Part shown: piece by piece, positions 3,454-35,333 of the stretch
Numbering within the stretch: the first letter of the stretch is position 1
How the letters are laid out: each line of letters opens with the position of its first letter
Assembly: GCA_013288905.1 (NCBI GenBank)
Contig: JABDAW010000005.1
Location: forward strand, 1-43,268
Origin: Bacteroidota bacterium
GTDB lineage: Bacteria; Bacteroidota; Bacteroidia; AKYH767-A; JABDAW01
Direction: 5' to 3'
DNA: 43,268 nt
Translations under genes and position numbers: made by a program
The notes under the pieces: model-generated
Told to the model about the DNA's origin: nothing
The model's input: the letters and a program-made list of their open reading frames with translations, nothing else
Database searches by the model: none

Positions 3454-3620
3454 TGGACCTCCTTCCATTCTTCAAAAAACAGGGCAAGTTCCAACTGGCA
3501 CTGCCGATATTCTTCAAAAAACAGGGCAAGTGTCACCTGGAAGTACGACTGTTTTTGGAAATACACAGGTACCTCCAGGTGGAAGTACGGCAGTTTTCCA
3601 AAAAACTGCCGTACTTTAGT
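3454..3620. repeat. 42-bp-period array, 4 units, last unit a near-perfect palindrome
   Basis: TGG recurs at 3454/3496/3538/3580 and TTCTTCAAAAAACAGGGCAAG at 3468 and 3510. AAGTACGGCAGTTTT..AAAACTGCCGTACTT spans 3583-3616. Confidence 0.8.
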
Positions 3621-3763
3621 CGGTGTTTTTCAGTGAGTTACGTTTTTGGAGGCAAAAAGGGGTTCTTTTTTAACATTTATTTTGCATCAGGGGCAATATA
3701 ACATGAGACAACAGAGTTATGGCAGTATATATTCAAATAAATAAATCTTATAAATAAATTAGT

Positions 3764-4732
3764 ATGCAAAGAAAACCACCGGTATCAGATCAGGAAATTT
3801 CGGACGGCTTGACAGAGTCGATAGCCCAACAATTTATCACTCCTGCTCTTGAGAAATTCCTGAAAGTATTAACCGAAGCTAACATGAATACCTACGGAGT
3901 AAACTTCCCCGCGAAAATCGTCTTGAGAAATAATGCCGAATCTGCCCAGACGAATGCCGTCACTGCCTCCGATATCGCTGAAGCGAAATTAGTGAAACGT
4001 ATGTCTCATTATTTTGATGTTTTGAATGGTCATATCGAAGATGGAGATTATCTTCCCGGCACCCGTTCGCTCTTCGGTCTGGACATCGCCACCGGCAATC
4101 ATCCTGTTATGGACACGACCACGAAAGCGATTGCCGTGGCAGGAAGAATAGCCTCCGGAGATGCTCAAATGGTAACGGAAGGAATGACGCAGATAGTAGA
4201 TTTTTCCGCTGCCAGCATAGCAGCTTTATTGGTAATATTGAATGATAAGATTGGCATTAAGAACCTCGCCAAAAGCGCGCACAATGATGCACTCGGCGTG
4301 GTGAATATTATGCGCCCTCTTGCGCTTGCGGCGCTACTTCAGGTTCAGCTGGAAGTAGAAAATAATTATAACCATCTTCCTTTACCTGCCATGCACACCT
4401 ATACCGTGCTGTGGGGTCTGAAATATGAAACCGCAAAAGAAGAAACAGAAATAAAAGTTATTTGCCTGTTGCCAGGCGGAATATTGAGAGCAGCAGGAGC
4501 AGACCTTCGCCTCGGTCCTATTTTGACAGCAGAAGGAAAACCTTCCAAGGAAGGCGTGAAAGGCACGGCAGATGCGGAAGGTGAAGATATTCTCAAGACC
4601 ACCCAGAAAGATACTCAATATATCAATGCCCGTATTTTGGGTTGCGCCGATGCAGCAGTTCCTGTAATTATTGTTCCTGGAATAGCACAGACCATTACGG
4701 TGAATTTTGTAGCCGGGACTTCGAGTTTGTAA
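3764..4732 (+). CDS. Uncharacterised protein: Ala/Leu-rich helical region plus a C-terminal beta-sandwich (carboxypeptidase-regulatory-like) domain; no signal peptide
   Basis: 322-aa ORF after an AT-rich leader and before a terminator. Motifs SHYFDVLN..FGL..EVE..WGLKY resemble a Bacteroidota hypothetical family (from memory). Confidence 0.75.
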   Translation: MQRKPPVSDQEISDGLTESIAQQFITPALEKFLKVLTEANMNTYGVNFPAKIVLRNNAESAQTNAVTASDIAEAKLVKRMSHYFDVLNGHIEDGDYLPGTRSLFGLDIATGNHPVMDTTTKAIAVAGRIASGDAQMVTEGMTQIVDFSAASIAALLVILNDKIGIKNLAKSAHNDALGVVNIMRPLALAALLQVQLEVENNYNHLPLPAMHTYTVLWGLKYETAKEETEIKVICLLPGGILRAAGADLRLGPILTAEGKPSKEGVKGTADAEGEDILKTTQKDTQYINARILGCADAAVPVIIVPGIAQTITVNFVAGTSSL

Positions 4733-4765
4733 TTTTTTTTGATTATATTAAACTATTTTAGAAAG

Positions 4766-4796
4766 GCTCTCCAATGGAAACATTGGGGAGTTTTTT
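4766..4796 (+). terminator. Rho-independent terminator
   Basis: CTCTCCAATG-GAAA-CATTGGGGAG followed by TTTTTT. Confidence 0.75.
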
Positions 4797-4829
4797 ATTA
4801 CCCAAACTATTTTTAATTTTGAATCCTCT

Positions 4830-5186
4830 ATGGAAAATAAAACACCGTCAGAACTTAATGTAAAATGGAAGCAGCTCCTGGTCTCCCTTGAAGCGCAATT
4901 CGGCGAAGAGCCGGACTTACAGACCATACTATTCCTTATCGGCGTGAATGAATTGGGCAAAGGGGCGATGGAATTCACCAAAGGACAGAAGATGGATTTG
5001 ATGCACATCGCCACCTGTAGTTTGTTGAGCCAATACGGGTATTATCTCTACGAAGGACTTGATACCGACGGCTGGCCCCACTACACCCTGGTCGAGAAAC
5101 TCCCTCCCCTGAAAATAGGGCAGCAAGAAGACCTGCTGCGCGAGGCTATCCTGAGTTATTTCGATGTATCAGATATAAAGGAATAG
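4830..5186 (+). CDS. Conserved Bacteroidota hypothetical protein
   Basis: 118-aa ORF with PDLQTILFLIGVNELG..QKMDLMHIATC..DGWPHY motifs. Confidence 0.8.
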   Translation: MENKTPSELNVKWKQLLVSLEAQFGEEPDLQTILFLIGVNELGKGAMEFTKGQKMDLMHIATCSLLSQYGYYLYEGLDTDGWPHYTLVEKLPPLKIGQQEDLLREAILSYFDVSDIKE

Positions 5187-5260
5187 GGTATAAAGATATA
5201 AAGAATAAAGGTGTGATGTTCCTTATGCCTTTATACCTTTATACCCTATTCCTTTATACC
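5172..5260. repeat. Inverted low-complexity octamer repeats ((G/A)(G/A)TATAAA versus TTTATACC); related copy near 5728-5782
   Basis: GATATAAAGGAATAGGGTATAAAG...CCTTTATACCCTATTCCTTTATACC between convergent genes. Confidence 0.65.
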
Positions 5261-5271
5261 CTTGTCAACGA

Positions 5272-5634
5272 TTAATTCACCCTTACGGTCTGCTCAATAG
5301 TTTGACCCACCTGAAGGCTTATTTCGCCCTTGCCGGATTTACCAGTAGTCGTAGCCGAAATGTCAAGCACAGCAGGCAATGGAAAGGTAAAATTGGCTGT
5401 TCCAGAACCATCAGAAGTTTGTGTTTGAGAAACATTGGCAGTTACCTGATTATAATTCGTAATGTTTTCTTTGAATAGCGTAACAGTGGCCCCTGCAACA
5501 GGGTTTCCAGTCTCATCTATCACATGAATGACAGCTAAACAATCTGTACGCTTTTGACAAGAAGGCATTAAAAGAATCGTGAAGGCTACCAAGGCTACCA
5601 TGATACTTGCGGTTTTGAAGATTTTCTTATTCAT
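5272..5634 (-). CDS. Small lipoprotein with carboxypeptidase-regulatory-like/Ig domain (paralogue A)
   Basis: MPS-C lipobox; VIDETGNPVAGATVTL motif. Confidence 0.85.
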   Translation of the reverse strand: MNKKIFKTASIMVALVAFTILLMPSCQKRTDCLAVIHVIDETGNPVAGATVTLFKENITNYNQVTANVSQTQTSDGSGTANFTFPLPAVLDISATTTGKSGKGEISLQVGQTIEQTVRVN

Positions 5635-5800
5635 ACTCTGAATTTTTTGTTAATATGATTCAATAAACTGAACTTTGAGTTACAAAGTTACAAAAAATTT
5701 TATTAACAACCAAATTCTATAAAATGCGAATAGGGTATAAGGGAATATGGAAAATTCATCCATGAACCCTTATACCCTATTTCAAGGATACGATTTAAGT

Positions 5801-6166
5801 TTAATAAACCCTCACGGTCTGTTCGGTAGTTTGACCCACCTGGAGACTGATCTCACCTTTGCCTGATTTGGTAGTCGTCTTGGCTGTAATGTCCAGCACG
5901 GCAGGCAAAGCAAAAGTGTAAGTACACGTTCCTGAACCATCGGAAACCTGCGTCTGGGTGACGTTTGCAGTTACCCCATTATACTGAGTAACGTTGGTTT
6001 TGAAGAGCACCACCGTAGCCCCGGCAACAGGATTTCCCGCTGTATCAATCACATGAACCACTGCAACGCAATCGGTATTTTTACTACAGGAAGGAGTCAG
6101 GATTACGGTTACAAAAAGACCTATGACCATTAGGCTTAGGAAAGATTTTACTACATACTTTTTCAT
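5801..6166 (-). CDS. Small lipoprotein with carboxypeptidase-regulatory-like/Ig domain (paralogue B)
   Basis: TPS-C lipobox; VIDTAGNPVAGATVVL; mature part highly similar to 5272-5634. Confidence 0.85.
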   Translation of the reverse strand: MKKYVVKSFLSLMVIGLFVTVILTPSCSKNTDCVAVVHVIDTAGNPVAGATVVLFKTNVTQYNGVTANVTQTQVSDGSGTCTYTFALPAVLDITAKTTTKSGKGEISLQVGQTTEQTVRVY

Positions 6167-6259
6167 TATTCTAAGATATTTGTTAATATTGCGACCTGAT
6201 AATAATATTTCAAGTCCACAAAATTAAGAAAAATTTCGTAAATCAAAAAAGTATTCAAA

Positions 6260-6949
6260 ATGAAAAGTGTAAAATTAATTGTAATTGTAATGATTGTAAT
6301 CGCCATGAGCCATGTATCTACAGGACAGACTGCGCCTGGAAAACCTAATGCTGCCGCAGCATCAAAAGATCGTTTTGTAATGATCACAACTGACTATGGA
6401 AATATCAAAGTAAAGTTGTATAGCGAAACCCCGAAACACAGTGATAACTTTTATGCACTGGCACAAAAAGGGTTTTATGACGGAACTCTTTTCCACCGAG
6501 TCATCAAAGGATTTATGATTCAAGGTGGCGACCCGACATCAAAAGGTGCTGCTGCAGGGGTATCCCTTGGCAGTGGTGGTGGAGAATTGGCAAGAATACC
6601 AGCCGAGTTTAATCCAAAGTATTTCCACAAGAAAGGAGCTCTTGCTGCTGCTCGTGATGGAAATCCAGAAAAGGCATCAAGCGGTTGTCAGTTTTATATT
6701 GTTCAGGGAAAAGTCTATACCGATGCAGAATTAGACGGTATGGAAAAACAAATGGGACATCCATTTTCAGCAGAACAAAGGAAGGCTTATACCACCCTTG
6801 GCGGAACACCTTTCCTTGATATGGGTTATACAGTTTTTGGTGAAGTGGTTGAAGGTTTGGATGTATTGGATAAGATAGCAGCAGCCCAAACAGCACCTGG
6901 CGACAGACCTGTAAAGGATATTAAGATGACAGTAAAAGTTGTTAATTAG
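6260..6949 (+). CDS. Exported cyclophilin-type peptidyl-prolyl cis-trans isomerase
   Basis: FYDGTLFHRVIKGFMIQGGDP, QFYIV and YTVFGEVVEG motifs; N-terminal signal peptide. Confidence 0.95.
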   Translation: MKSVKLIVIVMIVIAMSHVSTGQTAPGKPNAAAASKDRFVMITTDYGNIKVKLYSETPKHSDNFYALAQKGFYDGTLFHRVIKGFMIQGGDPTSKGAAAGVSLGSGGGELARIPAEFNPKYFHKKGALAAARDGNPEKASSGCQFYIVQGKVYTDAELDGMEKQMGHPFSAEQRKAYTTLGGTPFLDMGYTVFGEVVEGLDVLDKIAAAQTAPGDRPVKDIKMTVKVVN

Positions 6950-6983
6950 TAAACCAATTAACGATTAACCGTTTCCCTACAAG

Positions 6984-8003
6984 ATGCAGGAAAAAATTAA
7001 GAATCTGATTCATGATGTTGAAGGGTTTATTCCTTCGACCGAAGAACAACTGGAAGAATTCCGCTTAAAATACCTAAGTAAAAAAGGAATTCTTTCAGAC
7101 TTGTTTCTGGAGATGAAAGAAGCCAGCCCCGAACAGAAAAAGGACTTAGGCAAGATTCTTAATGAATTAAAAAATAAAGCGGAAGAGAAGTATGCTTCCT
7201 TCAAAGAAAGTTTAGAAGGGAGTAAGTTAGAGGTGGCGACTGACATGGATTTGACCTTACCTTCAAGCTCTTATTTAGGATCACGACATCCCATATCTAT
7301 TGTCAGGAATGAGATAGTAGAAATCTTCTCAAGGATAGGATTCACCGTCTCTGAAGGACCGGAAATAGAGGATGACTGGCATAATTTCTCTGCACTGAAT
7401 TTCCCCGAAGAACATCCCGCCAGAGATATGCAGGATACTTTCTTCATCCAAAAGGATCCTGACATTGCTTTAAGGACACATACCTCCTCAGTTCAGGTCA
7501 GGGTGATGGAATCTTCACAGCCTCCCATCAGGACTATTTCTCCCGGAAGAGTTTTCAGGAATGAAGCCATCTCTGCACGTGCTCATTGTATATTTCACCA
7601 GGTAGAAGGACTCTGCATTGATGAAGATATTTCTTTTGCCGACCTAAAGCAGACTTTGCTTTATTTTGCAAGAGAAATGTTTGGCGAGGATACCAAGATT
7701 CGATTGCGCCCATCTTATTTTCCTTTTACCGAGCCTTCGGCTGAGATGGATATTTCATGTACTCTATGTGGCGGCAAGGGCTGCAACATCTGTAAATATA
7801 CCGGCTGGACAGAGATCATGGGCTGCGGAATGGTTGACCCGAATGTATTGAAGAATTGCCACATCAATCCCTTAATATATACCGGTTTTGCCTTTGGAAT
7901 GGGAATCGAAAGAATCACAATGTTGAAATATCAGATTAATGACTTGAGAATATATTTTGAGAATGATATACGATTCTTGAGACAATTTTCTGGTATGATT
8001 TAG
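6984..8003 (+). CDS. pheS: Phenylalanine--tRNA ligase alpha subunit
   Basis: [33 protein letters not shown] and [11 protein letters not shown] motifs. Confidence 0.98.
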
Positions 8004-8059
8004 GATAAGGAAAAAAATAATTAATCAAATATATTTAAATAAACTTAATATTAAAAAAA

Positions 8060-8473
8060 ATGAAAAATTTAGTAATCTTAATGGCAGCCATAGTGTTGTT
8101 CGCATCATGTGGAAAAGATGGTGCCCCAGGTGCTCAAGGACCTCCTGGAAATGCAAATGTAAACTCTTATGTTTATGATGTAAATTCATGGGTTACAACA
8201 GTCAGTCCTCCTTATGAGTGCTATACTGACTTATCGGTACCAGAAATTACAGGTAGTGTTATTTCCGGAGGTACTGTGCAGGTATTTGAAGGGAATGCTT
8301 CATCAGGAAGTTCTATCTGGTATGCAATGCCTTATTCATTCCAAGGTACAGAAGTATCTTTTGACATTTCTATTGGAGGTGTTAGAATTTATCGAACTTA
8401 TGACAGTGGCAACCCTATTACCCCCCCATCAGTTATCGTGGAGTATAAAGTAGTAGTAATTCCTCCAGTTTAG
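8060..8473 (+). CDS. Lipoprotein with a short collagen-like Gly-X-Y linker
   Basis: FAS-C lipobox followed by GKDGAPGAQGPPG. Confidence 0.8.
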   Translation: MKNLVILMAAIVLFASCGKDGAPGAQGPPGNANVNSYVYDVNSWVTTVSPPYECYTDLSVPEITGSVISGGTVQVFEGNASSGSSIWYAMPYSFQGTEVSFDISIGGVRIYRTYDSGNPITPPSVIVEYKVVVIPPV

Positions 8474-8499
8474 TATTCAATAAAATTAAGCAATAGAGA

Positions 8500-8769
8500 A
8501 TGGACAAGAACGATCAGTTATTAGCTCAATTATTATACATCTTTCAATCTTCGGCAATGCAGGGAATGGGAAAGATGAAGAATCCCATGACCGATAAAAT
8601 CGAAAGAAATATGGAGCAGGCTCAACAATCTATTGATATGCTGGAGATGATTAAGGAAAAGACGAAGGGTAATATTTCTCCTGAATTGGCAAGGATCATG
8701 GATAATTTCCTTACCGAATTAAGGCTGAATTATGTTGATGAATTGAACAAAGATAAAATTAATCCCTAA
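8500..8769 (+). CDS. DUF1844-family protein
   Basis: AMQGMGKMKNP..AQQSIDMLEMIKEKTKGN..ELRLNYV pattern. Confidence 0.8.
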   Translation: MDKNDQLLAQLLYIFQSSAMQGMGKMKNPMTDKIERNMEQAQQSIDMLEMIKEKTKGNISPELARIMDNFLTELRLNYVDELNKDKINP

Positions 8770-8810
8770 ACGCAGGGTCAATAATTAAATTAATAAAAAT
8801 ACTAAACTAA

Positions 8811-11484: not shown

Positions 11485-11540
11485 TTGATCCTTTTATTGC
11501 TGCACACCTGAAAATGTGAATGCGGTCATAAAGGATGAAA
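11485..11540. repeat. TCATC...GATGAAA hairpin element, degenerate copy
   Basis: ATCCTTTTATTGCTGCAC..GAAAA..ATGC..TCATAAAGGATGAAA, similar to 17746-17800. Confidence 0.75.
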
Positions 11541-11892: not shown

Positions 11893-11917
11893 ATAATTCT
11901 TATCCGAATATGATTCA

Positions 11918-11970
11918 TCATCGTCTTGTTGCCCCGCCGCAAAAGCGGACGGCATCACAAGACGATGAAA
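11918..11970. repeat. TCATC...GATGAAA hairpin element
   Basis: TCATCGTCTTGT-TGCC..CCGC-AAAA-GCGG..GGCA-TC-ACAAGACGATGA. Confidence 0.75.
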
Positions 11971-12030: not shown

Positions 12031-12195
12031 AAGCTTTCGGCAAAAACTCAAAAATAGGTAAATGTTTCCAATAAGCTTCCTCCAAACCGCCAGATATACA
12101 TCAATGTACACAATTAGCTTTGGTCAATACCTCAAAAAAAGGTCGATGTTTCGAGGAAGCTTCGCCCAGAAAAACGTTTTTTTGGGCGAAGCTAA
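12031..12195. repeat. 42-bp-period degenerate array, 4 units, last unit palindromic
   Basis: (A/T)AGCTT at 12031/12073/12115/12157. The last unit reads AGCTTCGCCCAGAAAAAC-GTTTTTTTGGGCGAAGCT. CATCTATTCATGT at 12271 and 12313 is also 42 bp apart. Confidence 0.7.
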
Positions 12196-12505
12196 CTCGA
12201 AATTGGGTTTATATTTATTTCGAATTCCGATAGAGACATGCATAAATAGTTTATCAAATAAATAATAAACCATCTATTCATGTGTATATATTTATTTTTT
12301 AAATCAACAAAACATCTATTCATGTATATATGGAATAATCGCCTATTTTCTGACTAAGCCCTCCAAAATCTGTTGGGAATATTTTTTCATTTCCAAGAAA
12401 CCTTCCTATATATGTTGTCTATATTTTATCCCACCCAAATCCCATTTCCCCACCCTTTCCTACTTTTGCCACAAAAAAAATGAAGATGGTTAATGATTAT
12501 TTGGG

Positions 12506-17105: not shown

Positions 17106-17720
17106 ATGGCAAACATCTTTGAATTCAAGGGCATCAAGCCTGTCATTCATCCCTCGGCTTTTATTCATCCTAATGCTGCCGTTACCGGAAATGTCGTTAT
17201 CGGAAAGGATGTGTACATAGGTCCTGGTGCGGCATTGCGGGGTGATTGGGGAAGGATAATTATTGAAGATGGCTGCAATGTACAGGAGAACTGCACGGTT
17301 CACATGTTTCCTGGCTTGACTGTTACTTTGAAAGAGGGTGCTCACATCGGGCATGGTGCGGTAATTCATGGTTCTACGATAGGCAAGAATGTTTTGGTGG
17401 GCATCAATGCAGTGATTATGGATCATGTCGTTATTGGTGATAATTGCATCATCGGAGCCTTGACTTTTATTCCGGAAGGAGCTATTATTCCAGAAAGAAA
17501 AGTGGTGGTGGGCAATCCTTATAAAATCATTAAAGATGTCAGCGATGATATGCTTGAATGGAAAACCAATGGCACTGCATTATACCAAGCCCTTCCAAAA
17601 GATTGCCATGAGACCTTGAAGCCTTGCAAACCACTTCGTTCCATTCCAAAAGATAAGGATGGGATTACAAATCCAGTCCATCCTGATTACAAGACTTGGA
17701 AGGAAGCCAAGAAGAAATAG
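17106..17720 (+). CDS. paaY: PaaY/CaiE-like gamma-carbonic-anhydrase-family hexapeptide-repeat protein
   Basis: LRGDWG, NVQENC.VH, HIGHGAVIHG motifs; follows a PaaJ-like thiolase. Confidence 0.8.
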   Translation: MANIFEFKGIKPVIHPSAFIHPNAAVTGNVVIGKDVYIGPGAALRGDWGRIIIEDGCNVQENCTVHMFPGLTVTLKEGAHIGHGAVIHGSTIGKNVLVGINAVIMDHVVIGDNCIIGALTFIPEGAIIPERKVVVGNPYKIIKDVSDDMLEWKTNGTALYQALPKDCHETLKPCKPLRSIPKDKDGITNPVHPDYKTWKEAKKK

Positions 17721-17745
17721 AAATAATTTATTCCGTTAATCTTTC

Positions 17746-17800
17746 TTCATCCTTTTATTGCTGCACCCCGAAAAGGGGCATGCAATCATAAAAGGATGAA
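17746..17800. repeat. TTCATC...GATGAA hairpin element
   Basis: 13-bp stem TTCATCCTTTTAT/ATAAAAGGATGAA enclosing TGCA-CCCC-GAAAA-GGGG-CA-TGCA. Confidence 0.8.
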
Positions 17801-17911
17801 AGAAACGATTCCCATGTCACATCCCTGACAGGTGGGAAAATTTCACTACCGTGAATGGCAGTACGACAGCAGCAGGGATTTATTCCCTTTCCTAAACATC
17901 CCACATTCACT

Positions 17912-17951
17912 TTTACCCCTCTCCCCTTTGGAGAGGGGCAAGGGGTGAGGC
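17912..17951. repeat. BoxC/REP-like element; second copy at 37968-38006
   Basis: TTTACCCCTCTCCC(C)TTTGGAGAGGGGCAAGG(G/A)GTGAGGC present twice. Confidence 0.85.
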
Positions 17952-17991
17952 TTCTTCCCGAAATCTTCCAAGGTTTCGGGATTTTCTTTTT

Positions 17992-18244
17992 AGGTCTATG
18001 ACGAATCATGAAACGTCCGATAGCAATCATGAAAGGTTTTACCCGAATCATGATACGTTTTTAAAAGTTTCAAAAAACGTCCCCGACCTTTCCCTATTCG
18101 TATCCGACCTCTCACAACACGTCACCCACCGTTTCCAATACATACACAACCTCTCCAAAGACATACTCCACCAAAAAAAAGACGTCCTGCACGTCTCCTA
18201 AGACGTTCCCCAAGAAAAAAAAGACGTGTACGACGAATCATCAT
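17992..18244. repeat. 21-bp-period degenerate array, about 12 units
   Basis: AATCATGA three times at 21-bp spacing. ACGT/ACAT/TCGT cores at 18077, 18098, 18119, 18140, 18161, 18182, 18203 and 18224. Confidence 0.7.
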
Positions 18245-18359
18245 TCCTATAAAACCTTTGATTCTTCGTAGATACACGTCTTACGATACATCTAAAACAC
18301 CTCAATTATCATAGTTTACCGCCTATAAATCAATGCTTTACGCTCAATTCAATAAATCC

Positions 18360-18483: not shown

Positions 18484-19584
18484 ATGAATGAACTGATTCC
18501 AGATAAAAATCTTTACTCAAAAATTGTTGAATTGCTCGCTGCGGCAAGGCAAAACGTTGTAAGAACAGTGAACCAGACTATGGTCTATACCTACTATGAA
18601 ATCGGGCGGATGATAGTAGAAGATGAGCAGCATGGCAAGGAACGCGCTGAATATGGGAAGCAGGTTTTGAAAGAACTTTCCAAACGGCTTTCCAATGAAT
18701 TTGGGAAGGGTTTTTCTAAAAGAAATTTAGAACAGATGCGTCTGTTTTACCTAACCTACTCAATTGCGCAGACGACTTCTGCGCAATTGGAGAAGGTGAA
18801 AAATAATGATAGTTCAATTCAGCAGACGGCTTCTGCTGAATTGGAAAATGATAAAAATATTGATTTAAAGATTTACGAGAAGCCGTCTCGTAAATTTATT
18901 CTCTCGTGGTCGCATTATCTTAAACTGATGCGTATTGAAAACCTTAATGAACGAAGCTTTTATGAGATAGAATGTGCATCAAATAATTGGTCTCTTAAAG
19001 AATTAGAACGCCAATTCAACAGTGCGCTTTATGAACGTTTGGTTTTGAGCCGCAATAAAGAAGGTGTGAAGCAGCTTGCAGAAAAAGGACAGGTGATTGA
19101 AAAACCATTGGATTTTCTTAAAGACCCATACATTTTAGAATTCTTGAATCTTTCGGAACACAAAGAATATTCCGAGAATGATTTGGAATCGGAAATCATA
19201 GATAAACTTGAACATTTTCTCTTGGAATTAGGCAAAGGTTTTACTTTTGCCGGAAGGCAGGTTCGGCTCACATTTGATGAAAGCCACTTCAAAGCCGATT
19301 TGGTATTTTATAACCGCCTCTTGAAATGCTTCGTAATAATAGACCTTAAAATCGGCAAACTCACCCACCAGGACATCGGGCAAATGCAGATGTATGTCAA
19401 CTATTACGACCGCATCATAAAGCTGCCCGAAGAAAACAAAACCATCGGCATCATCCTCTGCAAAGACAAAAGCAAAACCCTTGTAGAATTTACTTTACTC
19501 CAAGATAACGACAGCATCTTCGCAAGCAAATACCAAACTATATTGCCCGATAAACAAGACTTTATCAACCTGCTAAATCAGTGA
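18484..19584 (+). CDS. YhcG/DUF1016 family PD-(D/E)xK nuclease domain protein
   Basis: YYEIGRMIVEDEQ.G..RAEYG, LSWSHY, KDPYILEFL, ELGKGFTF, DLVFYNRLL..IDLK, GQMQMYVNYYD. Confidence 0.95.
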   Translation: MNELIPDKNLYSKIVELLAAARQNVVRTVNQTMVYTYYEIGRMIVEDEQHGKERAEYGKQVLKELSKRLSNEFGKGFSKRNLEQMRLFYLTYSIAQTTSAQLEKVKNNDSSIQQTASAELENDKNIDLKIYEKPSRKFILSWSHYLKLMRIENLNERSFYEIECASNNWSLKELERQFNSALYERLVLSRNKEGVKQLAEKGQVIEKPLDFLKDPYILEFLNLSEHKEYSENDLESEIIDKLEHFLLELGKGFTFAGRQVRLTFDESHFKADLVFYNRLLKCFVIIDLKIGKLTHQDIGQMQMYVNYYDRIIKLPEENKTIGIILCKDKSKTLVEFTLLQDNDSIFASKYQTILPDKQDFINLLNQ

Positions 19585-26394: not shown

Positions 26395-26453
26395 CGAAAT
26401 TTGGGATAAATTCCAGAATCTGCACCATCAATGATACCGACCTTGTATCTAAA

Positions 26454-27230
26454 TCAATTTCTAATCCGTCCTAAATAAAACGTTATCCCGATAGTTAATC
26501 CATAGCTTTCAAAGGAATTTGAGGGTGCCAATTGCTGACTTGGTTGAGCGGGATTGACGTATATAGTTGGGAATTGAAGATAATCAATTTGTTTCTGGGC
26601 AATGGTGAAATTAGCAAGATTAACGCCGCCCGTAGCTTCCGTAACCTCGGAATGGGTAGGAGTCCAATGAATTCCTGTATAATTCAACTCAATAAAAGCA
26701 GACACAGAGGGAATCAACTTGTAATTATATCCTACGCCAGCCTTAATTCCATAGGCATAATTTCCTTGTGTGATGGAGGTAGTATAATGAATATCGGGTG
26801 TGTTGGCATTTGGAGTTTGAGGGATGGTGTCAAAGACCGCATAAATCCTGTCCTGCTCCCTGATTCCGGGAAAATCAATGACGATGCCGAACCTTGCATA
26901 GAGCGAAAATTTAGTCTGTCCGAAATAGACTTTTACCGCAGGAATCAATTCCGAACGATTAATGGAATATTCGCCAATAGAATTGCCGTTGCCTTGTTTG
27001 AAACCGCTTGAAAGATGCGAATATTCCAATTCCAGATTGATCTTTTGCTTATAAACCGGTACTCCGAGGAGCAGAGAAAAAGCAGTTCCTGAATTACTGC
27101 CATTCGGGTTGCTGAAAGTCATAGGACCATTGAATTGATCAAAGCCAAACATCCCGCTGAAGTATAGACTTTGGGCAAAGCCATTGGTAGCAAAAAGAAG
27201 AATGATAAACGTCGTTTTTAATGGTCTCAT
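26454..27230 (-). CDS. Outer-membrane beta-barrel protein
   Basis: Signal peptide; alternating aromatic strands (YGIKAGVGYNYKL, FIELNY, YGLTIGITFYL). Confidence 0.8.
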   Translation of the reverse strand: MRPLKTTFIILLFATNGFAQSLYFSGMFGFDQFNGPMTFSNPNGSNSGTAFSLLLGVPVYKQKINLELEYSHLSSGFKQGNGNSIGEYSINRSELIPAVKVYFGQTKFSLYARFGIVIDFPGIREQDRIYAVFDTIPQTPNANTPDIHYTTSITQGNYAYGIKAGVGYNYKLIPSVSAFIELNYTGIHWTPTHSEVTEATGGVNLANFTIAQKQIDYLQFPTIYVNPAQPSQQLAPSNSFESYGLTIGITFYLGRIRN

Positions 27231-27233
27231 AAA

Positions 27234-27326
27234 TTATTCTGCAATCATTTTCCTGATGCCTAAGACTTCTTTATTCTCGTCAATGCGAAGTACATTCAGA
27301 TTATCGCCGTAAAAAAGTTTATTCAT
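27234..27326 (-). pseudogene. 30-codon chimeric scar: DNA-methyltransferase N-terminus fused to a T9SS-CTD C-terminus
   Basis: MNKLFYGDNLNVLR + IDENKEVLGIRKMIAE*; the second half matches IDENKEVIGIGKMIVE* of 19789-21387. Confidence 0.7.
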
Positions 27327-27336
27327 GTCTTATAAA

Positions 27337-27609
27337 TTAATTCAATTCATAGTTTTCACAATATGGATCTAATGGGTCATCCACCTCAACCAATTGAATT
27401 TTCATACTCTCAAAAAAATCTCCTACTGTTTGACTGCATCCTTCCTTTATAATATCGTCTAATCCTATTCTACCAAATTGGAAGTCTTCACAAAGTTTCA
27501 ACATTGCTTCTATCGTTTCATCGCTGTAACTTGCAAAGAATTGGTTGTAGAAATACCATTCCAAAGTATCGTAATAATCTATCTTTAATCTTCTTTCTTT
27601 CTTTATCAT
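27337..27609 (-). CDS. Hypothetical acidic protein
   Basis: 90-aa ORF with a TACTTTTG -7 box about 15 nt upstream. Confidence 0.55.
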   Translation of the reverse strand: MIKKERRLKIDYYDTLEWYFYNQFFASYSDETIEAMLKLCEDFQFGRIGLDDIIKEGCSQTVGDFFESMKIQLVEVDDPLDPYCENYELN

Positions 27610-27794
27610 ATTTATATTTAAGGATGCAAAAGTAGGAATCTGTCATCAATCAAATTCTTTCCTGTCATATCATCTACTTTTAAATTAGGAAAAAAGCAAA
27701 ATTAGGAAAAAAGAATATCATTTACGATTTCAAATCTGAAATCGTACATCGTAAATTCTCATTAAAACCGCCTTTTTACACCTGAAAAAAACCG

Positions 27795-28083
27795 CGATGG
27801 ACATTCATCGCCTGTGAATATACATAGAATCCGTTGGAATGTACATTCGCTCGGTTTGAATGTATATTCACTCTTTTGGAATATACATTCACACTCTTTG
27901 AATATACATTACATGGCATGGTAATATACATTCACTCGCTTTGAATATACATTACCTACCCTTGTAATATACATTCATACTCCTTGAATGTATATCCGCT
28001 CGCCTTTAATATACATTCGCTCACTTTGAATATACATTAGCTATGCTTGTAATGTACATTCACACGGCTTGAATGTATATTCA
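27795..28083. repeat. Repeat-spacer array: 14 palindromic cores (G/T)AATRTAYATT(C/A) with 13 different short spacers, period 21-22 bp
   Basis: Cores start at 27795, 27816, 27837, 27858, 27879, 27900, 27922, 27943, 27965, 27986, 28007, 28028, 28050 and 28071. Confidence 0.92.
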
Positions 28084-28134
28084 GACGCGTTTTTCGTCTG
28101 TTCATAGTATTTTGATTGATGGCATGAATAAAAG

Positions 28135-28174
28135 AAGCCCCCGAGTGCCATATAATTTGTGGCATCGGGGGCTT
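28135..28174 (-). terminator. Terminator-like hairpin downstream of 28191-29045
   Basis: AAGCCCCCGA(G)TGCCA..TGGCATCGGGGGCTT with a T-rich tail on the minus strand. Confidence 0.75.
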
Positions 28175-28190
28175 AAAATTCTTGTCTGAA

Positions 28191-29045
28191 TTAAACAATA
28201 GGAGCTACACGAACTCTGATTGCAGGATGAAAACCTTCGGGTCCATGAGCATCGCATAACTGATAACGCACCCAGACATAATTGCCCGGAATCAAGCCTG
28301 TCAAAGTAGCATGGTTATAAATAGTAGGGTCCATTCTTATCCAATTAATATTATCAACACTATACCAGTTATCGTAGCAACAAGTTCCTACGCCGGTGAT
28401 GAAAGTCATATCAACTTCGCCCGGCAGTTTTCCAGATGCAGCATCCCAGGTAGAAGCATGATTTCCGCCTACACCTTTTACGTGAAACCCGCCTGACTGT
28501 ATGATCACAATGCTATTTGCCTTGTTTGCCGGGAGGTCGGCAAAGGCTTGGAATTTCGCCATAAAAACTTCGAGAGCCGCCACCGCAAGATCAAGAGTTA
28601 CCTTACGTGCTGCACCATGCGCTTTGTTATAATTTTCTATCAAATCGCTGGCAGCATCGAGGTCAATAACCAAGAGAGAAACATACTCGTTTCCGGTGCA
28701 TTTCGTAACGATTCCATTCATCAAAACCACCGCTTTGCCGTGATTGTGAGGAATGACCAGATAGGCTTCCACGCTGGCATTAGGATTCGGGAGGATTGAC
28801 AAGATAACGGGCATTCCACGCTCGATTTTCAGTCCCTTTCCACGACCGAAATCGAGGATGATAGTAACCATTTCGAAGCCGGGGGTACGTCTCAATTTAG
28901 CAGCAGCCTTTCTGCCCTGCCAAGTGTTCGGGAATCTAAATTTCGGCTGTTTTACTTTCACAACAGCTCCTTTTTTGGCAACCACTTCTGTCCACTCAAG
29001 GAGGAAGCTCAATACAACGATTACAAGGGTTACAATTTTTTTCAT
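28191..29045 (-). CDS. Uncharacterised protein: helical domain plus C-terminal fibronectin-type-III-like domain
   Basis: C-terminal Y..WYS.D..NW..TLTGLIPG.YVWVRY..GPEGF Fn3 pattern; homologous to the 34197-34726 relic. Confidence 0.8.
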   Translation of the reverse strand: MKKIVTLVIVVLSFLLEWTEVVAKKGAVVKVKQPKFRFPNTWQGRKAAAKLRRTPGFEMVTIILDFGRGKGLKIERGMPVILSILPNPNASVEAYLVIPHNHGKAVVLMNGIVTKCTGNEYVSLLVIDLDAASDLIENYNKAHGAARKVTLDLAVAALEVFMAKFQAFADLPANKANSIVIIQSGGFHVKGVGGNHASTWDAASGKLPGEVDMTFITGVGTCCYDNWYSVDNINWIRMDPTIYNHATLTGLIPGNYVWVRYQLCDAHGPEGFHPAIRVRVAPIV

Positions 29046-29217
29046 TTTTTTTTAAATTTTAAATTATTAATATTATTTCTCGGGATTTATAAACTCGGAT
29101 TGCATTCAGTAGGAGTCCCATTCGCACTTACCAGTTTACCAAACCGCAGGAGGAAGTATCAAATAATTTGATGGGACAAAATTAGAAAACTAATTGGAAT
29201 AAAAGAATCGAAAGATT

Positions 29218-29272
29218 TTTCATCATCTTGAGATACCGTCCTCTTCGGAGGCGGTGTATCAAGATGATGAAA
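29218..29272. repeat. TTTCATC...GATGAAA hairpin element
   Basis: TTTCATCATCTTGA..TACCG(T)CCTC-TTCG-GAGGCGGTG..TCAAGATGATGAAA. Confidence 0.75.
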
Positions 29273-29274
29273 CC

Positions 29275-29338
29275 AATTAGGAATTACGAATTAGGAATTA
29301 GGAACATACCACGCACCCTAATTCCTAATTCCTAATTT
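29275..29338. repeat. Inverted heptamer repeats (AATTAGG)n...(CCTAATT)n
   Basis: AATTAGGAATTACGAATTAGGAATTAGG ... CCTAATTCCTAATTCCTAATT. Confidence 0.75.
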
Positions 29339-29425
29339 TTAATTGATTTTATGGAATCCTTTTCCCTTTTGCATCTTACTGTCAAAACGTAGATAATCCA
29401 AACAGTAATTTAATAATTTAAGAAA

Positions 29426-32400: not shown

Positions 32401-33880
32401 TGTGGTAAGCGATCTGACTAAGGGTGTGGAAGGCATCTTACGTGAACCCAATGGTTGTTTTGAGCAGACTTCCATGAGTTCTTATCCCAATGTCATGGTC
32501 ATGAATTATCTTAAAGAAACAGATAATAAGGATGAGAAGTTATTGGCATCTGCAAGTGGTTTTGTTGACAGGGGTTATAAGAGACTGACTACCTTCGAAA
32601 CCAAGGATAAAGGTTATGAATGGTTTGGTGGCGCACCTGCCCATGAAGCCCTTACAGCTTATGGTTTGATGCAATTCAATGACATGAAGGCTGTGGATAA
32701 TAATGTGGATCAAAAGATGATTGATCGCACTGCCGAATGGTTGATGAGCCGAAAGAATGGCAATGGCGGATTCCAGCGCAATCCAAGGGCTTTGGATAAC
32801 TTCGGTGGTGCTCCAGAAGACATTACCAATGCCTATATCGTCTATGCTTTGACCGAAGCGGGATACAATGATTTGGATAAAGAAATTGATCTTGTTCAGA
32901 AGAAAGCTGTAGATAATAAAGACCCATATCAACTGGCTTTATTGGCGAATACATTATACAAAAGAAAAGAAATCGCCAAGGCTGATAAAGTTCTTGCAGA
33001 GTTATTAACGAAGCAAAACGTTGATGGCAGTTGGACTGGTACTACTTCTTCCATCACTCGTTCGGGAGGGAAATCATTGACTATTGAAACCACTTCATTA
33101 GCCATCCTTGCTATCATAAGAAGTACCGGAAATAACATTCAGGCATTAAACAAAGCCGTTCAATATATTGTCGGAGAACGCAGTGGATACGGGGCTTTCG
33201 GCTCTACTCAAGGAACTATCCTTGCTCTTAAAGCCTTGACCGAATATGCCAGATTCTCCAAGCATACCAGCGAAGACGGCACCATAGAATTCTATGTTGA
33301 TGGAAGGAAAGTTGCCGAGAAATCATACAAGGCAGGGGATAAGGATGCCATCGTTATTGATGGTCTGGATAAATATATCAAGACGGGAAAGCATGACTTG
33401 AAAGTAAGGTATGTAGGAGTCAAGAACCCGCTCCCATACAGCATTGCGGTATCATACAACACTTTCCTTCCGAACAGTTCCAAGGATTGCAAGGTGAGTA
33501 TCGAGACGAAGTTATTCAGCAATAACATCAAGACCGGCGAGACTGTTCGATTGTCTGCAACCCTTACCAATACTACTAAAGAAGGACTTCCAAGCACAAT
33601 GGCTATTATTGGAATTCCGGCAGGACTATCTCCACAGCCTTGGCAATTAAAGGAGATGCAAGAGAAACATGTCTTCGATTATTATGAAATCAAGGGCAAT
33701 TCGGTCATCTGTTATTACAGACAGATGGCTCCTTCAGAAGTCAAGAATATCAACTTCGATTTGAAAGCAGATGTGCCTGGAAGCTATGATTCACCTGCAT
33801 CTTCGGCATATCTTTATTATACCAATGAATACAAGTGCTGGACTTCGACGGGGAATGTTATTATCAGGAAGATGATGTAA
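29426..33880 (+). CDS. Alpha-2-macroglobulin family thioester protein
   Basis: MG domains (DKPFYKPGETI, TDKEKYLPREKV), DFRSTIYW, thioester PNGCFEQT, FGSTQGT, Pro/Ala/Met-rich bait-like segment, N-terminal membrane/signal helix. Confidence 0.93.
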   Translation: MKKKNVIRNVFSIAFVMAMVFGVMSLIKAGGYFQQEVENDFIKKARSKFDSALLKHPEDRVYMQFDKPFYKPGETIWFAAYVRNGKDFTPSEKSDILHVQLIGPKGNVEKEIKLIGKNGKTIGDFTIAAESPGGLYKVKAFTNWQKNETDTVFFEKELTVQDVVLPNLKMKLDFERKAFGPGDEVIAKLELNTNENQPLANYNFKYVANLEGKKLLESTSVTGNDGIMYIHFKLPENLKTNDGLVNVLIDYQGQTESVSRSIPIVLNNINFSMYPEGGDLVNDLESRVAFRALNEFGKPADVEGDVFDSNNKLITHFSSYHQGMGAFNIKPEGGKRYFVKITKPENIREKFDLPEPMPRGYVLSTDNVNHNELVLNVKSTETEELNIIAQTRGKICYATSFAANAGNNKLILPANQFPIGVSQITLFDSKGIERAERLVFLNKNKQLSIAIETDKEKYLPREKVKMTVTVRDDRGMPMPASLSMAVVNDQLLSFADDKSGNILSKLLLENDIKGKVEEPAFYFNTKEPKADVALDYLLMTAGWRRFTWKKILENDLPNIAYQGERAILSGTIIDQNASKPISSAKIKVNGTERTISVNEKGEFFLDKLDLSNPTNINVDAEGYIPQTIAVYDYKEGIKYYLTDKNQVVYERSEVVIQGANMDRQNLMAAPNNVFMDMGAVAVKPQKMPKVNKAPAPKAMPAPANVDIVAKMDKDIMVADQAELNAFRGMQWQANAKEEVEQVNNGFVPANNNMKMMARRIKPVNPNASTPPAIGYYRAKEFPMINYPIVQENVVRNDFRSTIYWNGNVAIDRTGTGVVEFYNSDDISSFRATVEGISADGMVGRTEKTYFTQLPFAMTVKAPVEVATEDKVSIPLTLKNNTNSSITGTLNFKAPAGFKEIIPVETTQTLSAGQVKVIYLDYHVMNTIGDGDLDVSFNSSGLNDAFTQKMKIVAKGFPVTISFSGKEATKEYEINIQNIVDGSLTAQLTAFPSVVSDLTKGVEGILREPNGCFEQTSMSSYPNVMVMNYLKETDNKDEKLLASASGFVDRGYKRLTTFETKDKGYEWFGGAPAHEALTAYGLMQFNDMKAVDNNVDQKMIDRTAEWLMSRKNGNGGFQRNPRALDNFGGAPEDITNAYIVYALTEAGYNDLDKEIDLVQKKAVDNKDPYQLALLANTLYKRKEIAKADKVLAELLTKQNVDGSWTGTTSSITRSGGKSLTIETTSLAILAIIRSTGNNIQALNKAVQYIVGERSGYGAFGSTQGTILALKALTEYARFSKHTSEDGTIEFYVDGRKVAEKSYKAGDKDAIVIDGLDKYIKTGKHDLKVRYVGVKNPLPYSIAVSYNTFLPNSSKDCKVSIETKLFSNNIKTGETVRLSATLTNTTKEGLPSTMAIIGIPAGLSPQPWQLKEMQEKHVFDYYEIKGNSVICYYRQMAPSEVKNINFDLKADVPGSYDSPASSAYLYYTNEYKCWTSTGNVIIRKMM

Positions 33881-33896
33881 GAGGGAAGATGGTGAG

Positions 33897-33946
33897 AAGC
33901 CACGAATTTCACGAATTATAATTCTAATTCGTGAAATTCGTGGCTT
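33897..33946. repeat. 50-bp palindrome (REP-like or terminator)
   Basis: AAGCCACGAATTTCACGAATTA..TAATTCGTGAAATTCGTGGCTT. Confidence 0.85.
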
Positions 33947-34140
33947 AATTGTTGGTTAAAGCCCTGTGTTAAACAAATAACCAGTATGTCAAATTCCAAA
34001 TTCAGGTTCAATTCTTAAATCAAATAATCATTGTGAAATAGGACAACAATAGTTGCTCATACAGTAATAAATAGAAAAAAATCATATCCAGCTTTTGTGC
34101 CAAAAATATAAAAATCATCTACCATCTCATTTTTGATACA

Positions 34141-34170
34141 AAGCCCCCGAATGTTGCCATCCGGAGGCTT
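34141..34170 (-). terminator. Terminator-like hairpin downstream of the Fn3 relic
   Basis: AAGCCCCCGAATG..CATCCGGAGGCTT; same AAGCCCCCGA arm as 28135-28174. Confidence 0.65.
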
Positions 34171-34196
34171 AATTTCATCAAATCTTTTATAAAGAC

Positions 34197-34726
34197 CTAT
34201 TGACAGATGCAATATGCACTGTAAATCCATGCGCCGGGACCATTACTATCATTCATCCTGAATCGAAACCAATATTTGGTGAGCTGAGTCAAGCCACTGA
34301 CCAGGATTTTCGCCCTGTTAGTGGTGCCGCAGCCTATCCAGGCAATGTTATCTGTAGTAAGTTGATATTCATAAGCTTTTCTTGGTCCTTAAAGATTTCC
34401 CGATTACTTTAATCGTTCCGGTCAATTTTCCCCAGGTAGCTGCTAAAGGCGCTTTAGGCGTCCTTGTATGAACAATAACTTTAAAATTCGAACTTACGAT
34501 AATAGCTTCAGCAATTTCCACTGTTAATGCAGCGTTTGCAAGTCCCTGAACCCAGGCTAATAAGGCTATCAAATCCAATTCTACCTGGTTCATGGCACCA
34601 TCGCGAAGTTTAGTAGCTCCTTTTTCATCATTATTCGCTTTTGTTTGCAATTTTCCAAGGGCTATAAGGTCAGTATTTAATCCCGCAAGACCGCTCCATA
34701 CAGGTGTAAAGTAAAAAAAAGCACCT
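34197..34726 (-). pseudogene. 5'-truncated, frameshifted paralogue of the helical+Fn3 protein at 28191-29045
   Basis: Reads YFTPVWSGLAGLNTDLIALGKLQTKA...GKSLRTK, then after a frameshift near 34378 KAYEYQLTTDNIAWIGCGTTNRAKILVSGLTQLTKYWFRFRMNDSNGPGAWIYSAYCICQ*. There is no ATG before the upstream in-frame TAA. Confidence 0.8.
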
Positions 34727-34934
34727 TAATTACCTTCTGAATTCAACCTTCAAAAACCTCCCTTTTTCCGTGTCAAAAAACAGGCTGCTTTTTACTACCT
34801 TATTCAGCATGATAATTTGCTGCTTTTTGCTACTGTTTGCTCCCCTGAAAACGCCCTTAAAAGAGCATTAAAACTGGATGGTTTTACTATGATTTCTGCC
34901 GCTTTTCCAGTGAATTCCGTTCCTAATATGGTCA

Positions 34935-35333
34935 AAAAACAACCGTTTCGACTACAATCCGAACCGTCTGAACTATAAACCCTTCGTCGTAAGCTATAAA
35001 CCGAACCGCGTACGCCATAGCGCGCTCCGCGTTAGCTATAAACCGAACCGCGTGCATTATACGCCGAACCCGCTATACCATAAGCCGAACCCGCTATACC
35101 ATAAGCCGAACCGCGTGTACTATACACCGAACCCGCTACACCAGAAACCGAACCGTCTGCATCATCCGGCGAACCCGCTACACCATAAACCGAACCCGCT
35201 ACACCACAAAATGAACCCTCTGAACCCCAAACCGAACCCGCTCACCTACAAACCGAATGGTATTGCTTACAACCCGAACAGATTCAGCATGAAACCGAAC
35301 CGCCTCGACCTCAGGATGAACCGACTCGCTACT
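34935..35333. repeat. 21-bp-period array, 19 units, consensus AAACCGAACC(CG/GC)CTNCAC(C/T)AT
   Basis: Units in exact phase from 34935 to 35313, with a conserved CCGAACC half and a variable half. Confidence 0.92.

Follow-up and report, generated by a model that had tools for sequence, protein, structure and literature searches.

Plasmid centromeres and iterons, such as parC with ParR or the Rep iterons, are whole-turn direct repeats adjoining the gene that encodes their binding protein, with the array downstream or upstream of that gene according to the system; sopC of the F plasmid lies downstream of sopB. It is made up of 12 units of 43 bp, each containing a 16-bp inverted repeat, and is bound by SopB (PMC3177203). 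Type III toxin-antitoxin (TA) loci are defined by 1.9-5.6 copies of a 31-62 nt repeat, after which come a terminator or short palindrome and then the gene, with one case of repeats downstream of the toxin (PMC3401426), and the 19 intergenic BrickBuilt copies of Porphyromonas gingivalis, 0.44% of its genome, consist of a leader, 1-22.8 copies of a 23-nt tandem repeat with conserved and variable unit halves, and a tail (PMC4596501). The Borg extrachromosomal elements of Methanoperedens carry perfect, A-rich tandem repeats, half of them in open reading frames (ORFs), whose intergenic unit lengths are unquantised, 14-38% being divisible by three (PMC9879509). Guide arrays have periods of 60-79 (CRISPR), 18 (TIGR) and 5 nt (VIPR), and a survey of periodic intergenic arrays recorded bands at 60-79, 18, 5 and 10 nt only, with a filter that dropped some multiples of three (bioRxiv 10.64898/2026.10.21.760802). 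Here we describe five arrays in a 43,268-nt stretch of a Bacteroidota bacterium (assembly GCA_013288905.1, contig JABDAW010000005.1, positions 1 to 43,268), hereafter the window. They are members of a genus-wide, non-coding tandem class with periods restricted to 21 bp and its multiples, and many arrays of this class are one half of a fixed-polarity module; the other half is an orphan gene, specific to the lineage, whose product is a cytoplasmic helical and beta-sandwich protein.

A non-coding repeat class with a 21-bp period

The window is the whole of contig C5 of its source genome (G000), which comprises 2,635,816 bases in 209 contigs and is rated 58.67% complete. A scan of this genome with a sliding 168-bp window, in which the best lag between 5 and 100 was kept if its match fraction was at least 0.52, returned 382 periodic regions, and in 292 of them the period is a multiple of 21: 21 in 147 regions, 42 in 114, 63 in 22 and 84 in 9, counts that are approximate in that neighbouring regions may be pieces of one array. 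Periods of 10, 11, 20, 22, 31 and 32 are represented by no region in G000, those of 52 and 53 are likewise absent, and the off-series periods include 41 and 43 (three and two regions), 7 (17 regions) and 51 (14 regions). The first-pass annotation had proposed, from the window, that the period is conserved while repeat sequences differ; the genome-wide series bears this out, the consensus units being mostly unrelated, with few small families and with many 42-bp units whose two halves are themselves unrelated.

Of the 292 regions, 49 reach a best self-match of 0.9 or more, 71 fall at 0.8-0.9, 82 at 0.65-0.8 and 90 lower; 120 arrays show at least 80% self-match one unit apart and are hence spacer-less. 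The median array core measures 189 bp and the typical assembled length is 100-300 bp. With 60-bp margins the arrays amount to 86,865 bases, next to 332,677 bases of other non-coding DNA, and they cover up to 3-4% of the partial genome and roughly one fifth of its non-coding DNA. According to crude, ORF-based gene calls, on which all neighbour tests below also rely, an array is present in 172 of 429 intergenic regions of at least 250 bp, and arrays occur in 60/259 divergent (23%), 89/1178 tandem (7.6%) and 27/286 convergent (9.4%) intergenic regions.

Stops are found in all six frames, margins included, in 246 of the 292 regions, and 16 regions lie inside an ORF reaching at least 450 bases beyond the array, mostly in period-63 leucine-rich-repeat-like genes; on the basis of stops and ORF extent, a coding origin was ruled out for all regions except these 16. 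The units have a GC content of 42.7%, compared with 33.1% in other intergenic DNA and 38.5% in coding DNA. On average 4.41 of six frames are open in 21-bp units and 3.63 in 42-bp units, as against 3.89 and 2.63 in mononucleotide shuffles; the units are also more open-framed than other intergenic DNA and contain fewer stop trinucleotides than composition-matched shuffles, an excess that may come from their high GC and a possible dinucleotide bias. Because repetition of a 21-bp unit almost always leaves one frame or another open, the arrays generate spurious ORFs, which matters for annotation: 201 of the 292 regions are overlain by an ORF scarcely larger than the array.

Within the units, perfect inverted repeats of at least 5 bp occur in 34% of those of 21 bp, and of at least 6 bp in 35% of those of 42 bp, compared with 8% of shuffles in each case. 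The conserved columns form one contiguous block (p<=0.05) in 19 of the 121 sufficiently variable arrays (6.1 expected), and an exact inverted copy of the unit of at least 10 nt is located within 90 bp of one end in 37 of 202 arrays, compared with 0.6% of permuted controls.

Two further kinds of periodic region were seen alongside this class. Period 7 constitutes the second class of G000, to which the window contributes TTCACTA x 8.9 at 35972-36033, also present on C146, and AATTAGG x 4.3 (29275-29304), which faces CCTAATT x 3 (29317-29337) in the divergent region between the orphan gene 28191-29045 and an alpha-2-macroglobulin gene. The period-51 regions recur in other genomes, outside the genus too (L060 of G001, L203 of G004 and L215 of G020), and may be coding (17 aa).

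Distribution and turnover of the arrays

In two other genomes of the same genus, all 13 periodic regions in 79,033 sampled bases of G001 and 37 of 39 in 171,799 sampled bases of G002 show periods divisible by 21. G003, which belongs to the same family and another genus, gave one periodic region and no multiple of 21 in a first sample of 65,222 bases; seven regions and no multiple of 21 were found in 200,000 bases of G009, G005 and G007; and 303,909 bases from 12 genomes of the order, including 75,778 more bases of G003, contained nine regions with two weak multiples of 21 (0.57 and 0.52). About 570 kb from 15 genomes of the order outside the genus thus yielded these two weak cases, and among the genomes sampled the array class is confined to one genus.

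G002, whose core proteins are about 90% identical to those of G000, carries arrays between pheS and the next gene (L057 2931-3225) and between rpsA and pyrR (L058 17859-18299); the corresponding junctions of the window measure 57 and 142 bp and are free of arrays. This presence and absence at identical junctions implies that arrays are gained and lost at fixed sites; the flanks there are too diverged for insertion scars to show. An array adjoins ispH in both congeners. The unit of the L058 array is a small stem-loop (CTACC-N7-GGTAG).

Arrays and orphan genes form modules of fixed polarity

Clustering of the genes next to arrays showed enrichment of a cluster of type IX secretion system (T9SS) cargo, with 40 of 111 members adjacent to an array, and of two small orphan families with 7/9 and 7/11 adjacent members, in which the array is always on the same side. 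The side was then scored for three families, fam5 (that of 28191-29045), fam15 (that of 3764-4732) and fam7, as the presence of a 21n-type array within 700 bp of the 5' or 3' gene end, in G000, G001 and G002, for family-profile matches with a locus returned. At the 15 fam5 loci examined out of 41 matches, the array is 3' of the gene in 15/15 and 5' in 0/15; all 23 fam15 matches were examined, with the array 5' in 17 of 20 testable loci and 3' in 0/23; and for fam7, of which 30 of 34 matches were examined, the corresponding counts are 26/27 for the 5' and 1/29 for the 3' side. The opposite side of the gene serves in each family as an internal control for these counts. Identity of the paralogues to the first alignment row goes down to 15-36%, and among paralogues sharing as little as 15-40% identity the array stays in place with a different unit sequence.

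The notion of gene plus phased-array modules, put forward by the first-pass annotation, is therefore strongly supported and extends beyond the window, with a fixed side in three sequence-unrelated orphan families of three genomes. As for the opposite picture that it had outlined, of arrays spread genome-wide with no enrichment beside these protein families, the spread is indeed there (292 regions), and the enrichment beside the families is strong.

In gene orientation, the fam5 module runs from the stop codon through a hairpin, GC-rich and accompanied by a T-run, then 10-13 units of 21 bp and a small GC hairpin with its own T-run, to a conserved flank; downstream of it follows the promoter region of the next gene, the identity of which varies by locus. 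All four fam5 orthologues from metagenomes (70-75% identical) come with terminator, array and flank, and two of the four (L180/L181) keep a core related to the window's GAATGTATATTC. The trailer-type flank, with its TTATAACGG- and CACCTGAAAA-type motifs, recurs after the array in other fam5 loci and in the metagenome orthologues. At three loci, no terminal inverted repeats were found around the fam5 cassette, and no matching inverted copy beyond the far side of the gene; unit variants are arranged block-wise, hinting at local duplication. The fam15 module consists of 3-5 units of 42 bp, the last of which forms a hairpin with an inverted partial copy, followed by about 100-150 AT-rich bases and the start codon. 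Terminal hairpins of this type are present at four other fam15 loci besides that of the window, with a T-run not directly adjacent, and a promoter-like box upstream of the array is seen by eye in three loci.

Elsewhere in the genome, a conserved left flank of about 90 bp is common to five arrays whose palindromic units differ (C6 22054-30429, C38 245-676 and C28 23223-23485), three of them within 9 kb on C6; this flank resembles the end of a multi-copy gene and may mark a further module family.

Module proteins

The AlphaFold2 (AF2) model of 3764-4732 consists of two helical hairpins of about 50 residues and a C-terminal transthyretin/CarboxypepD_reg-like sandwich (residues 228-318: VIA Z 11.6, rmsd 1.8, 80 aligned), and that of 28191-29045 of a four-helix bundle between an N-terminal part of about 90 aa, of low confidence and variable from paralogue to paralogue, and an FN3 domain at the C-terminus (Foldseek and VIA matches; Z 12.0, rmsd 1.8, 84 aligned). 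These models confirm two of the three helical and beta-sandwich neighbours predicted from the window; the third, the relic at 34197-34726, receives weak support from tblastn matches of 34236-34373(-) to the FN3 part (E 1.4e-4 for fam5, 6.6e-5 for fam26). A homodimer prediction for fam5 (score 0.06) gave no answer.

Family-profile matches number 41 for fam5 in G000-G002, with none in 28 other genomes of the order, and 23 for fam15 in G000-G002; no fam5-type match at 1e-8 was obtained in 300 other genomes sampled from the phylum. The fam5 and fam15 proteins belong to no Pfam family, fam5, fam15 and fam7 match nothing in PHROG, NCBIfam or PADLOC (E<=0.01), and the module proteins have no tblastn match in phage genomes. 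Near relatives are few, nine for fam5, all hypothetical, and two for fam15. The fam5 profile reaches 1291 representative clusters at E<=1e-3, so that the helical and FN3 core is widespread; it is unannotated, with no informative Pfam domain in 20 hits sampled among 150 listed. Look-ups of the module proteins in the Atlas returned only unnamed Bacteroidota/Myxococcota clusters; the fam7 neighbours there are of the same size and from Bacteroidota, and one cluster has CarboxypepD_reg in 60% of its members. By profile comparison fam5 is similar to fam26 (95.8% probability) and fam12 (84%), and no profile homology was detected between fam15 and fam7, or between fam5 and the C25 gene discussed below.

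The five arrays of the window

Each of the five arrays reported by the first-pass annotation is periodic at the positions given in Table 1: the highest autocorrelation is at lag 21, 42 or 84, with values of 0.54-0.64 compared with a shuffle 99th percentile of 0.37-0.42 (match fraction at the best lag; for each of 500 mononucleotide shuffles the highest value at any lag from 6 to 90 was taken, and the 99th percentile of these maxima is the reference). Tandem Repeats Finder (minimum score 30) lists only the arrays at 27801-28083 and 34996-35257, the other three being missed because they are too degenerate, so that autocorrelation is needed. It also reports a 21-bp x 2 repeat at 3404-3444, which is part of an inverted-repeat element and not an array of this class; the element itself (3351-3445, with AATATTGAACAAGGAATTC-type arms) occurs over 20 times in the genome, and its copies are often paired in inverted orientation at a distance of about 60 bp.

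Table 1. Positions of the arrays, module genes, relics and flanking elements in the window; lag values are match fractions compared with the shuffle 99th percentile
Feature	Coordinates	Strand	Description
Array 1	3454-3620	+	42 bp x 4, degenerate; lag 42 = 0.63 vs 0.40; 5' of gene 3764-4732
fam15 gene	3764-4732	+	322 aa orphan; AF2 model pLDDT 85.4
Array 2	12031-12195	+	42 bp x 4, ends in hairpin ~12157-12193; lags 84/42 = 0.57/0.49 vs 0.42
Gene relic	17805-17890	+	last ~22-28 codons of a 5'-truncated paralogue of G000 C25 669-1343(-)
Array 3	17992-18244	+	21 bp x ~12, degenerate; lags 42/21 = 0.55/0.54 vs 0.39
Conserved flank	27764-27811	-	trailer in gene orientation; small GC hairpin + T-run 27811-27794, then CACCTGAAAA-type motif; terminator-like
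Array 4	27795-28083	-	21-22 bp x ~13; lag 21 = 0.59 vs 0.39; 3' of gene 28191-29045
Hairpin	28137-28175	-	GC-rich + T-run between gene stop and array 4; intrinsic-terminator-like by eye; loop too long for consensus scan
fam5 gene	28191-29045	-	284 aa orphan; AF2 model pLDDT 75.7
Gene relic	34197-34726	-	degraded, fam5/fam26 kind; only FN3 part recognisable at 34236-34373; sole remaining ORF 93 aa
Array 5	34935-35333	+	21 bp x 19; lags 21/42/63 = 0.64/0.63/0.62 vs 0.37; on 5' side of relic 34197-34726

Arrays 1 and 4 sit in intact modules. The last unit of array 1 and its inverted partial copy make a hairpin with a 15-bp stem at about 3582-3616, and the array folds as single-stranded DNA with -34.9 kcal/mol (z -5.5; 0/200 shuffles as good). 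The unit of array 4 combines a 12-bp palindromic core (GAATRTAYATTC) with a variable spacer of 9-10 bp, and that of array 5 a conserved core of about 10 bp (AAACCGAACC) with a variable half.

The proposal that arrays 2 and 3 are paired with the solitary GIY-YIG and YhcG nucleases next to them has to be abandoned. Positions 12146-12274 of the window are 79% identical to C2 61653-61781, which lies immediately upstream of the fam15 gene C2 60651-61616, and array 2 is an orphaned fam15-type upstream array, the gene being absent here. Array 3 is inside a duplicate of C25 ~230-720, a segment that opens with the last codons of gene C25 669-1343: window positions 17700-18330 align to C25 900-230 with 88% mean column identity (blastn 92% over 301 bp), and the relic at 17805-17890 matches the C25 gene at 87.5% over 24 aa (tblastn). 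To judge from these alignments, array 3 is the 3' array of a truncated gene relic and untied to YhcG. Both arrays being orphaned or truncated copies of such modules, the GIY-YIG and YhcG genes are therefore bystanders. The YhcG domain is solid (PF06250, 3.8e-56), and the GIY-YIG match is weak (E 2.8e-4, 21.6 bits, under the Pfam cut-off of 22.6). The YhcG/DUF1016 PD-(D/E)xK nuclease gene (18484-19584) is also assigned, at E 1e-140, to PDC-S02, a candidate defence family of PADLOC, and holds an internal repeat of 54 bp x 1.9 at 18760-18864.

Array flanks and genomic context

An A/T-tract lead-in had been described at three arrays; the copy at about 27764-27790 belongs to a supported motif family, and the other two cited copies could not be upheld. 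The motif CTTTYYACAC has 29 copies in the genome, 11 of them within 150 bp of an array (1.0 expected) and all 11 aimed at the array; GGAGACAT has 19 copies near arrays (2.3 expected), of which 16 are aimed at the array; and a loose C/T-tract form occurs 114 times near arrays (50 expected), with no orientation preference. By the two motifs, 11 to 19 of the 292 arrays have a conserved one-sided flank, which gave nine nhmmer hits. A 16-base flank pattern was found at no fewer than 118 loci of a wider contig collection, with an array at 0/118 listed, and these are chance matches.

The intergenic regions are rich in other small repeats. REP-like (repetitive extragenic palindrome-like) hairpins lie downstream of genes at 11487-11540, 17745-17800 and 11917-11970; they are of the ATCCTTTTAT...ATAAAAGGAT and TCATCGTCTTGT...ACAAGACGATGA types, both of which recur in array flanks genome-wide. 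A MITE-like (miniature inverted-repeat transposable element-like) element of about 210 bp at 35486-35695 has long terminal inverted repeats and internal 'GCCGTTGGCTAAAGCCAACGG' hairpins, and parts of it recur beside other arrays.

A Pfam scan of 39 window ORFs identified ordinary chromosomal genes, namely pheS, atpA, etfAB, thiolase, pyrB, pyrR, rpsA and ispH/lytB; alpha-2-macroglobulin and several proteins with a type-IX-secretion sorting domain are encoded as well. One window protein has a relative that a public record assigns to Bacteroidota. The window contains no known RNA at Rfam gathering scores and no tRNA by ARAGORN; permissive Rfam scans of two array regions returned sub-threshold hairpin look-alikes only, and no RNA run containing 26400-29400 was listed among the sequencing runs searched. 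At 2-3253 there are six tandem paralogues of about 175 aa, with a seventh elsewhere in the genome, for which there are weak matches only: DUF5588 at E 0.0096 and, at E 0.0024, a model for type II restriction enzymes.

Discussion

DNA makes one helical turn per 10.5 bp, so that a whole number of turns coincides with a whole number of base pairs at multiples of 21 bp alone, and a whole-turn period places every unit of a long array on the same face of the helix. The period series fits selection, or a ruler, on double-stranded DNA, and is the strongest clue to mechanism. The reading that we favour, plausible although still short of probable, is that the arrays serve as DNA platforms, helically phased, to which the neighbouring protein binds; it is preferred because of the period series and because of a likeness to sopC-type arrays in side coupling, private units, cores and gene-less copies. 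Each array would be a phased row of binding sites, often with a core, palindromic or conserved, and a free spacer. Loading of these sites by the neighbouring protein, or else by a factor common to the arrays, would be cooperative, in the way that sopC or parC is occupied by its centromere-binding proteins. The nucleoprotein complex so formed would regulate the cassette or mark it, and orphan arrays would be remnants after gene loss.

Several observations weigh against such platforms. About 250 of the 292 regions of G000 do not adjoin the families examined (by crude gene calls), and arrays related to array 4 (about 70%) are found on C194 and C17 without such a gene alongside. Neither protein model contains a recognised DNA-binding fold, the sandwiches alone giving matches and the helical parts nothing specific, and hundreds of different unit sequences would demand many specificities. 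In a wedge model, array units show no greater bend than their shuffled counterparts (0.604 vs 0.626), and periods of 32 and 11 curve DNA nearly as well as 21, so that curvature alone does not explain the series. Finally, two features fit transcription of the array: terminator-like hairpins at the array end that lies in the direction of the gene and, in some loci, a promoter-like box upstream of the array.

In a narrower version of the platform reading, 'protein plus private address', dozens of fast-diversifying helical and sandwich proteins would each recognise their own array and its gene-less copies through the variable N-terminal part, which we consider possible but doubtful. Were it true, the arrays would be combinatorial, sequence-specific nucleoprotein landmarks, and the proteins a new programmable class of protein-DNA recognition unrelated to Par, Rep, TALE and RNA-guided systems. 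If the coupling amounts to recognition, the modules would offer dozens of natural pairs of small protein and repeat target, a data set for a new DNA (or RNA) recognition code and a possible source of orthogonal modules for binding. Should the arrays have no function, their period series would still be notable: it reads like an imprint, made in vivo, of the 10.5-bp helical repeat on genome evolution, left in about 290 unrelated sequences.

The last points raised against the platforms lead to the best-surviving alternative, an RNA-level module resembling type III TA systems, in which the array would be transcribed with or beside the gene and end at a hairpin, and the repeat RNA would bind, sequester or scaffold the protein. 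The fam15 loci have the published order of array, palindrome or terminator, and gene (PMC3401426), with 42-nt units in 3-5 copies, a long hairpin at the last unit and the gene about 100-150 bp later; fam5 modules present a small GC hairpin and T-run after the array in the direction of the gene, and the promoter-like box of three loci is upstream of the array. The strict 21n period across unrelated families and gene-less arrays, however, has no RNA rationale, and arrays of 10-19 units far exceed known antitoxin arrays. Moreover, the proteins are of 280-330 aa, helical and sandwich in build, with no Pfam hit and no nuclease-like fold among the VIA matches listed, and no Rfam family is matched at its gathering score. 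On balance we judge an RNA-level module unlikely.

Selfish or neutral minisatellites carried in MITE-like cassettes, in the manner of BrickBuilt, would expand through slippage or unequal exchange that in this lineage favours 21 bp, travel with small gene cassettes and serve no host function. BrickBuilt is a precedent in Bacteroidota (PMC4596501), a subset of arrays has a conserved flank, and the intergenic DNA is full of other small repeats; the arrays present in G002 and absent from the window at two identical junctions (PheS/next gene and S1/PyrR), the block-wise unit variants suggestive of local duplication, and the inverted unit copies at one end of 37/202 arrays, which hint at a replicative origin, point the same way. 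Neutral arrays would be expected to decay, yet an array has persisted on one and the same side of the gene in almost all paralogues, at 15-40% identity. No 21-bp ruler is known for slippage, many 42-bp units have unrelated halves, cores are conserved relative to spacers, palindromes are enriched, and the unit sequences are unrelated, unlike those of a single MITE family. This explanation comes next in probability, and we think it rather unlikely.

A sequence-independent structural role, in which any two-turn repeat would be curved or easily wrapped and act as an insulator, promoter-upstream element or nucleoid-protein site with no cognate protein, would account for the unrelated unit sequences and is in keeping with the share of arrays in divergent regions (23%, against 7.6% in tandem and 9.4% in convergent ones). 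In the wedge model, random units repeated over 252 bp have an end-to-end/contour ratio of 0.64 at period 21, compared with 0.92 at period 20 and 0.87 at period 22. The same model, however, predicts periods of 32 (0.69) and 11 (0.76), which are both absent; the units are not more bent than shuffles, and the family-specific gene side and the palindromic and conserved cores are left unexplained, which makes this role improbable. An assembly or binning artefact, suggested by the 209 contigs, the 59% completeness and the 10/292 arrays at contig ends, is hardly credible in view of the recurrence of the class in two congeners and four unrelated metagenome contigs, the embedding of arrays among conserved single-copy genes, and the finding of 0.34-1.00 of the words of 26400-29400 in three further DNA runs (two of which may be the source).

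Comparison with known systems

No described counterpart of the arrays was found: every known family considered departs from them in one defining feature or more, and no published report of bacterial 21-bp-quantised arrays or of such gene-array modules was found in the open-access literature.

CRISPR, TIGR and VIPR loci also consist of a periodic array, some with a core that alternates with a variable segment, a flank at one end and an adjacent protein gene of matching distribution; they differ in their periods, and most arrays described here have near-identical units without spacers. No Cas or Nop Pfam domain is present in the window ORFs. Borg repeats share with these arrays that they are pervasive, locus-unique, rapidly arising intergenic tandem repeats specific to one genome type, but the arrays have a fixed period, a GC content above the genome mean and ties to gene families. 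BrickBuilt has in common with them the phylum Bacteroidota, an intergenic position, spacer-less repeats of about 20 nt, a conserved flank that is here one-sided and present in a subset of arrays, two unit halves and many T9SS cargo neighbours; it is a single 23-nt family, whereas about 290 mostly unrelated regions, all 21n and coupled to genes with fixed polarity, are found here.

Among type III TA systems (toxIN, cptIN and tenpIN), the order of the fam15 module and its 42 nt x 3-5 fall within the published ranges, but most arrays have 10-19 units of 21 nt, and that of another family follows the gene and a terminator. The fam15 protein shows no relation to ToxN, CptN or TenpN by Pfam, NCBIfam, PHROG or PADLOC at E<=0.01, while the list of VIA matches does not exclude a nuclease.

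As regards plasmid centromeres and iterons, no Pfam domain of a ParA/ParM/TubZ, ParB, RHH or Rep protein was detected near the arrays among the 39 window ORFs, and the arrays lie among housekeeping genes (pheS, atpA, pyrB, rpsA and ispH) that are syntenic with relatives, a setting other than that of a plasmid or partition replicon. Unlike plasmid centromeres, they are chromosomal, number hundreds per genome and belong to single-gene modules whose partners are helical and sandwich proteins with a putative binding role. What the two share is nonetheless considerable: whole-turn direct repeats in about a dozen copies, an inverted-repeat core, here in a subset of units (34-35% vs 8%), and a position beside a gene.

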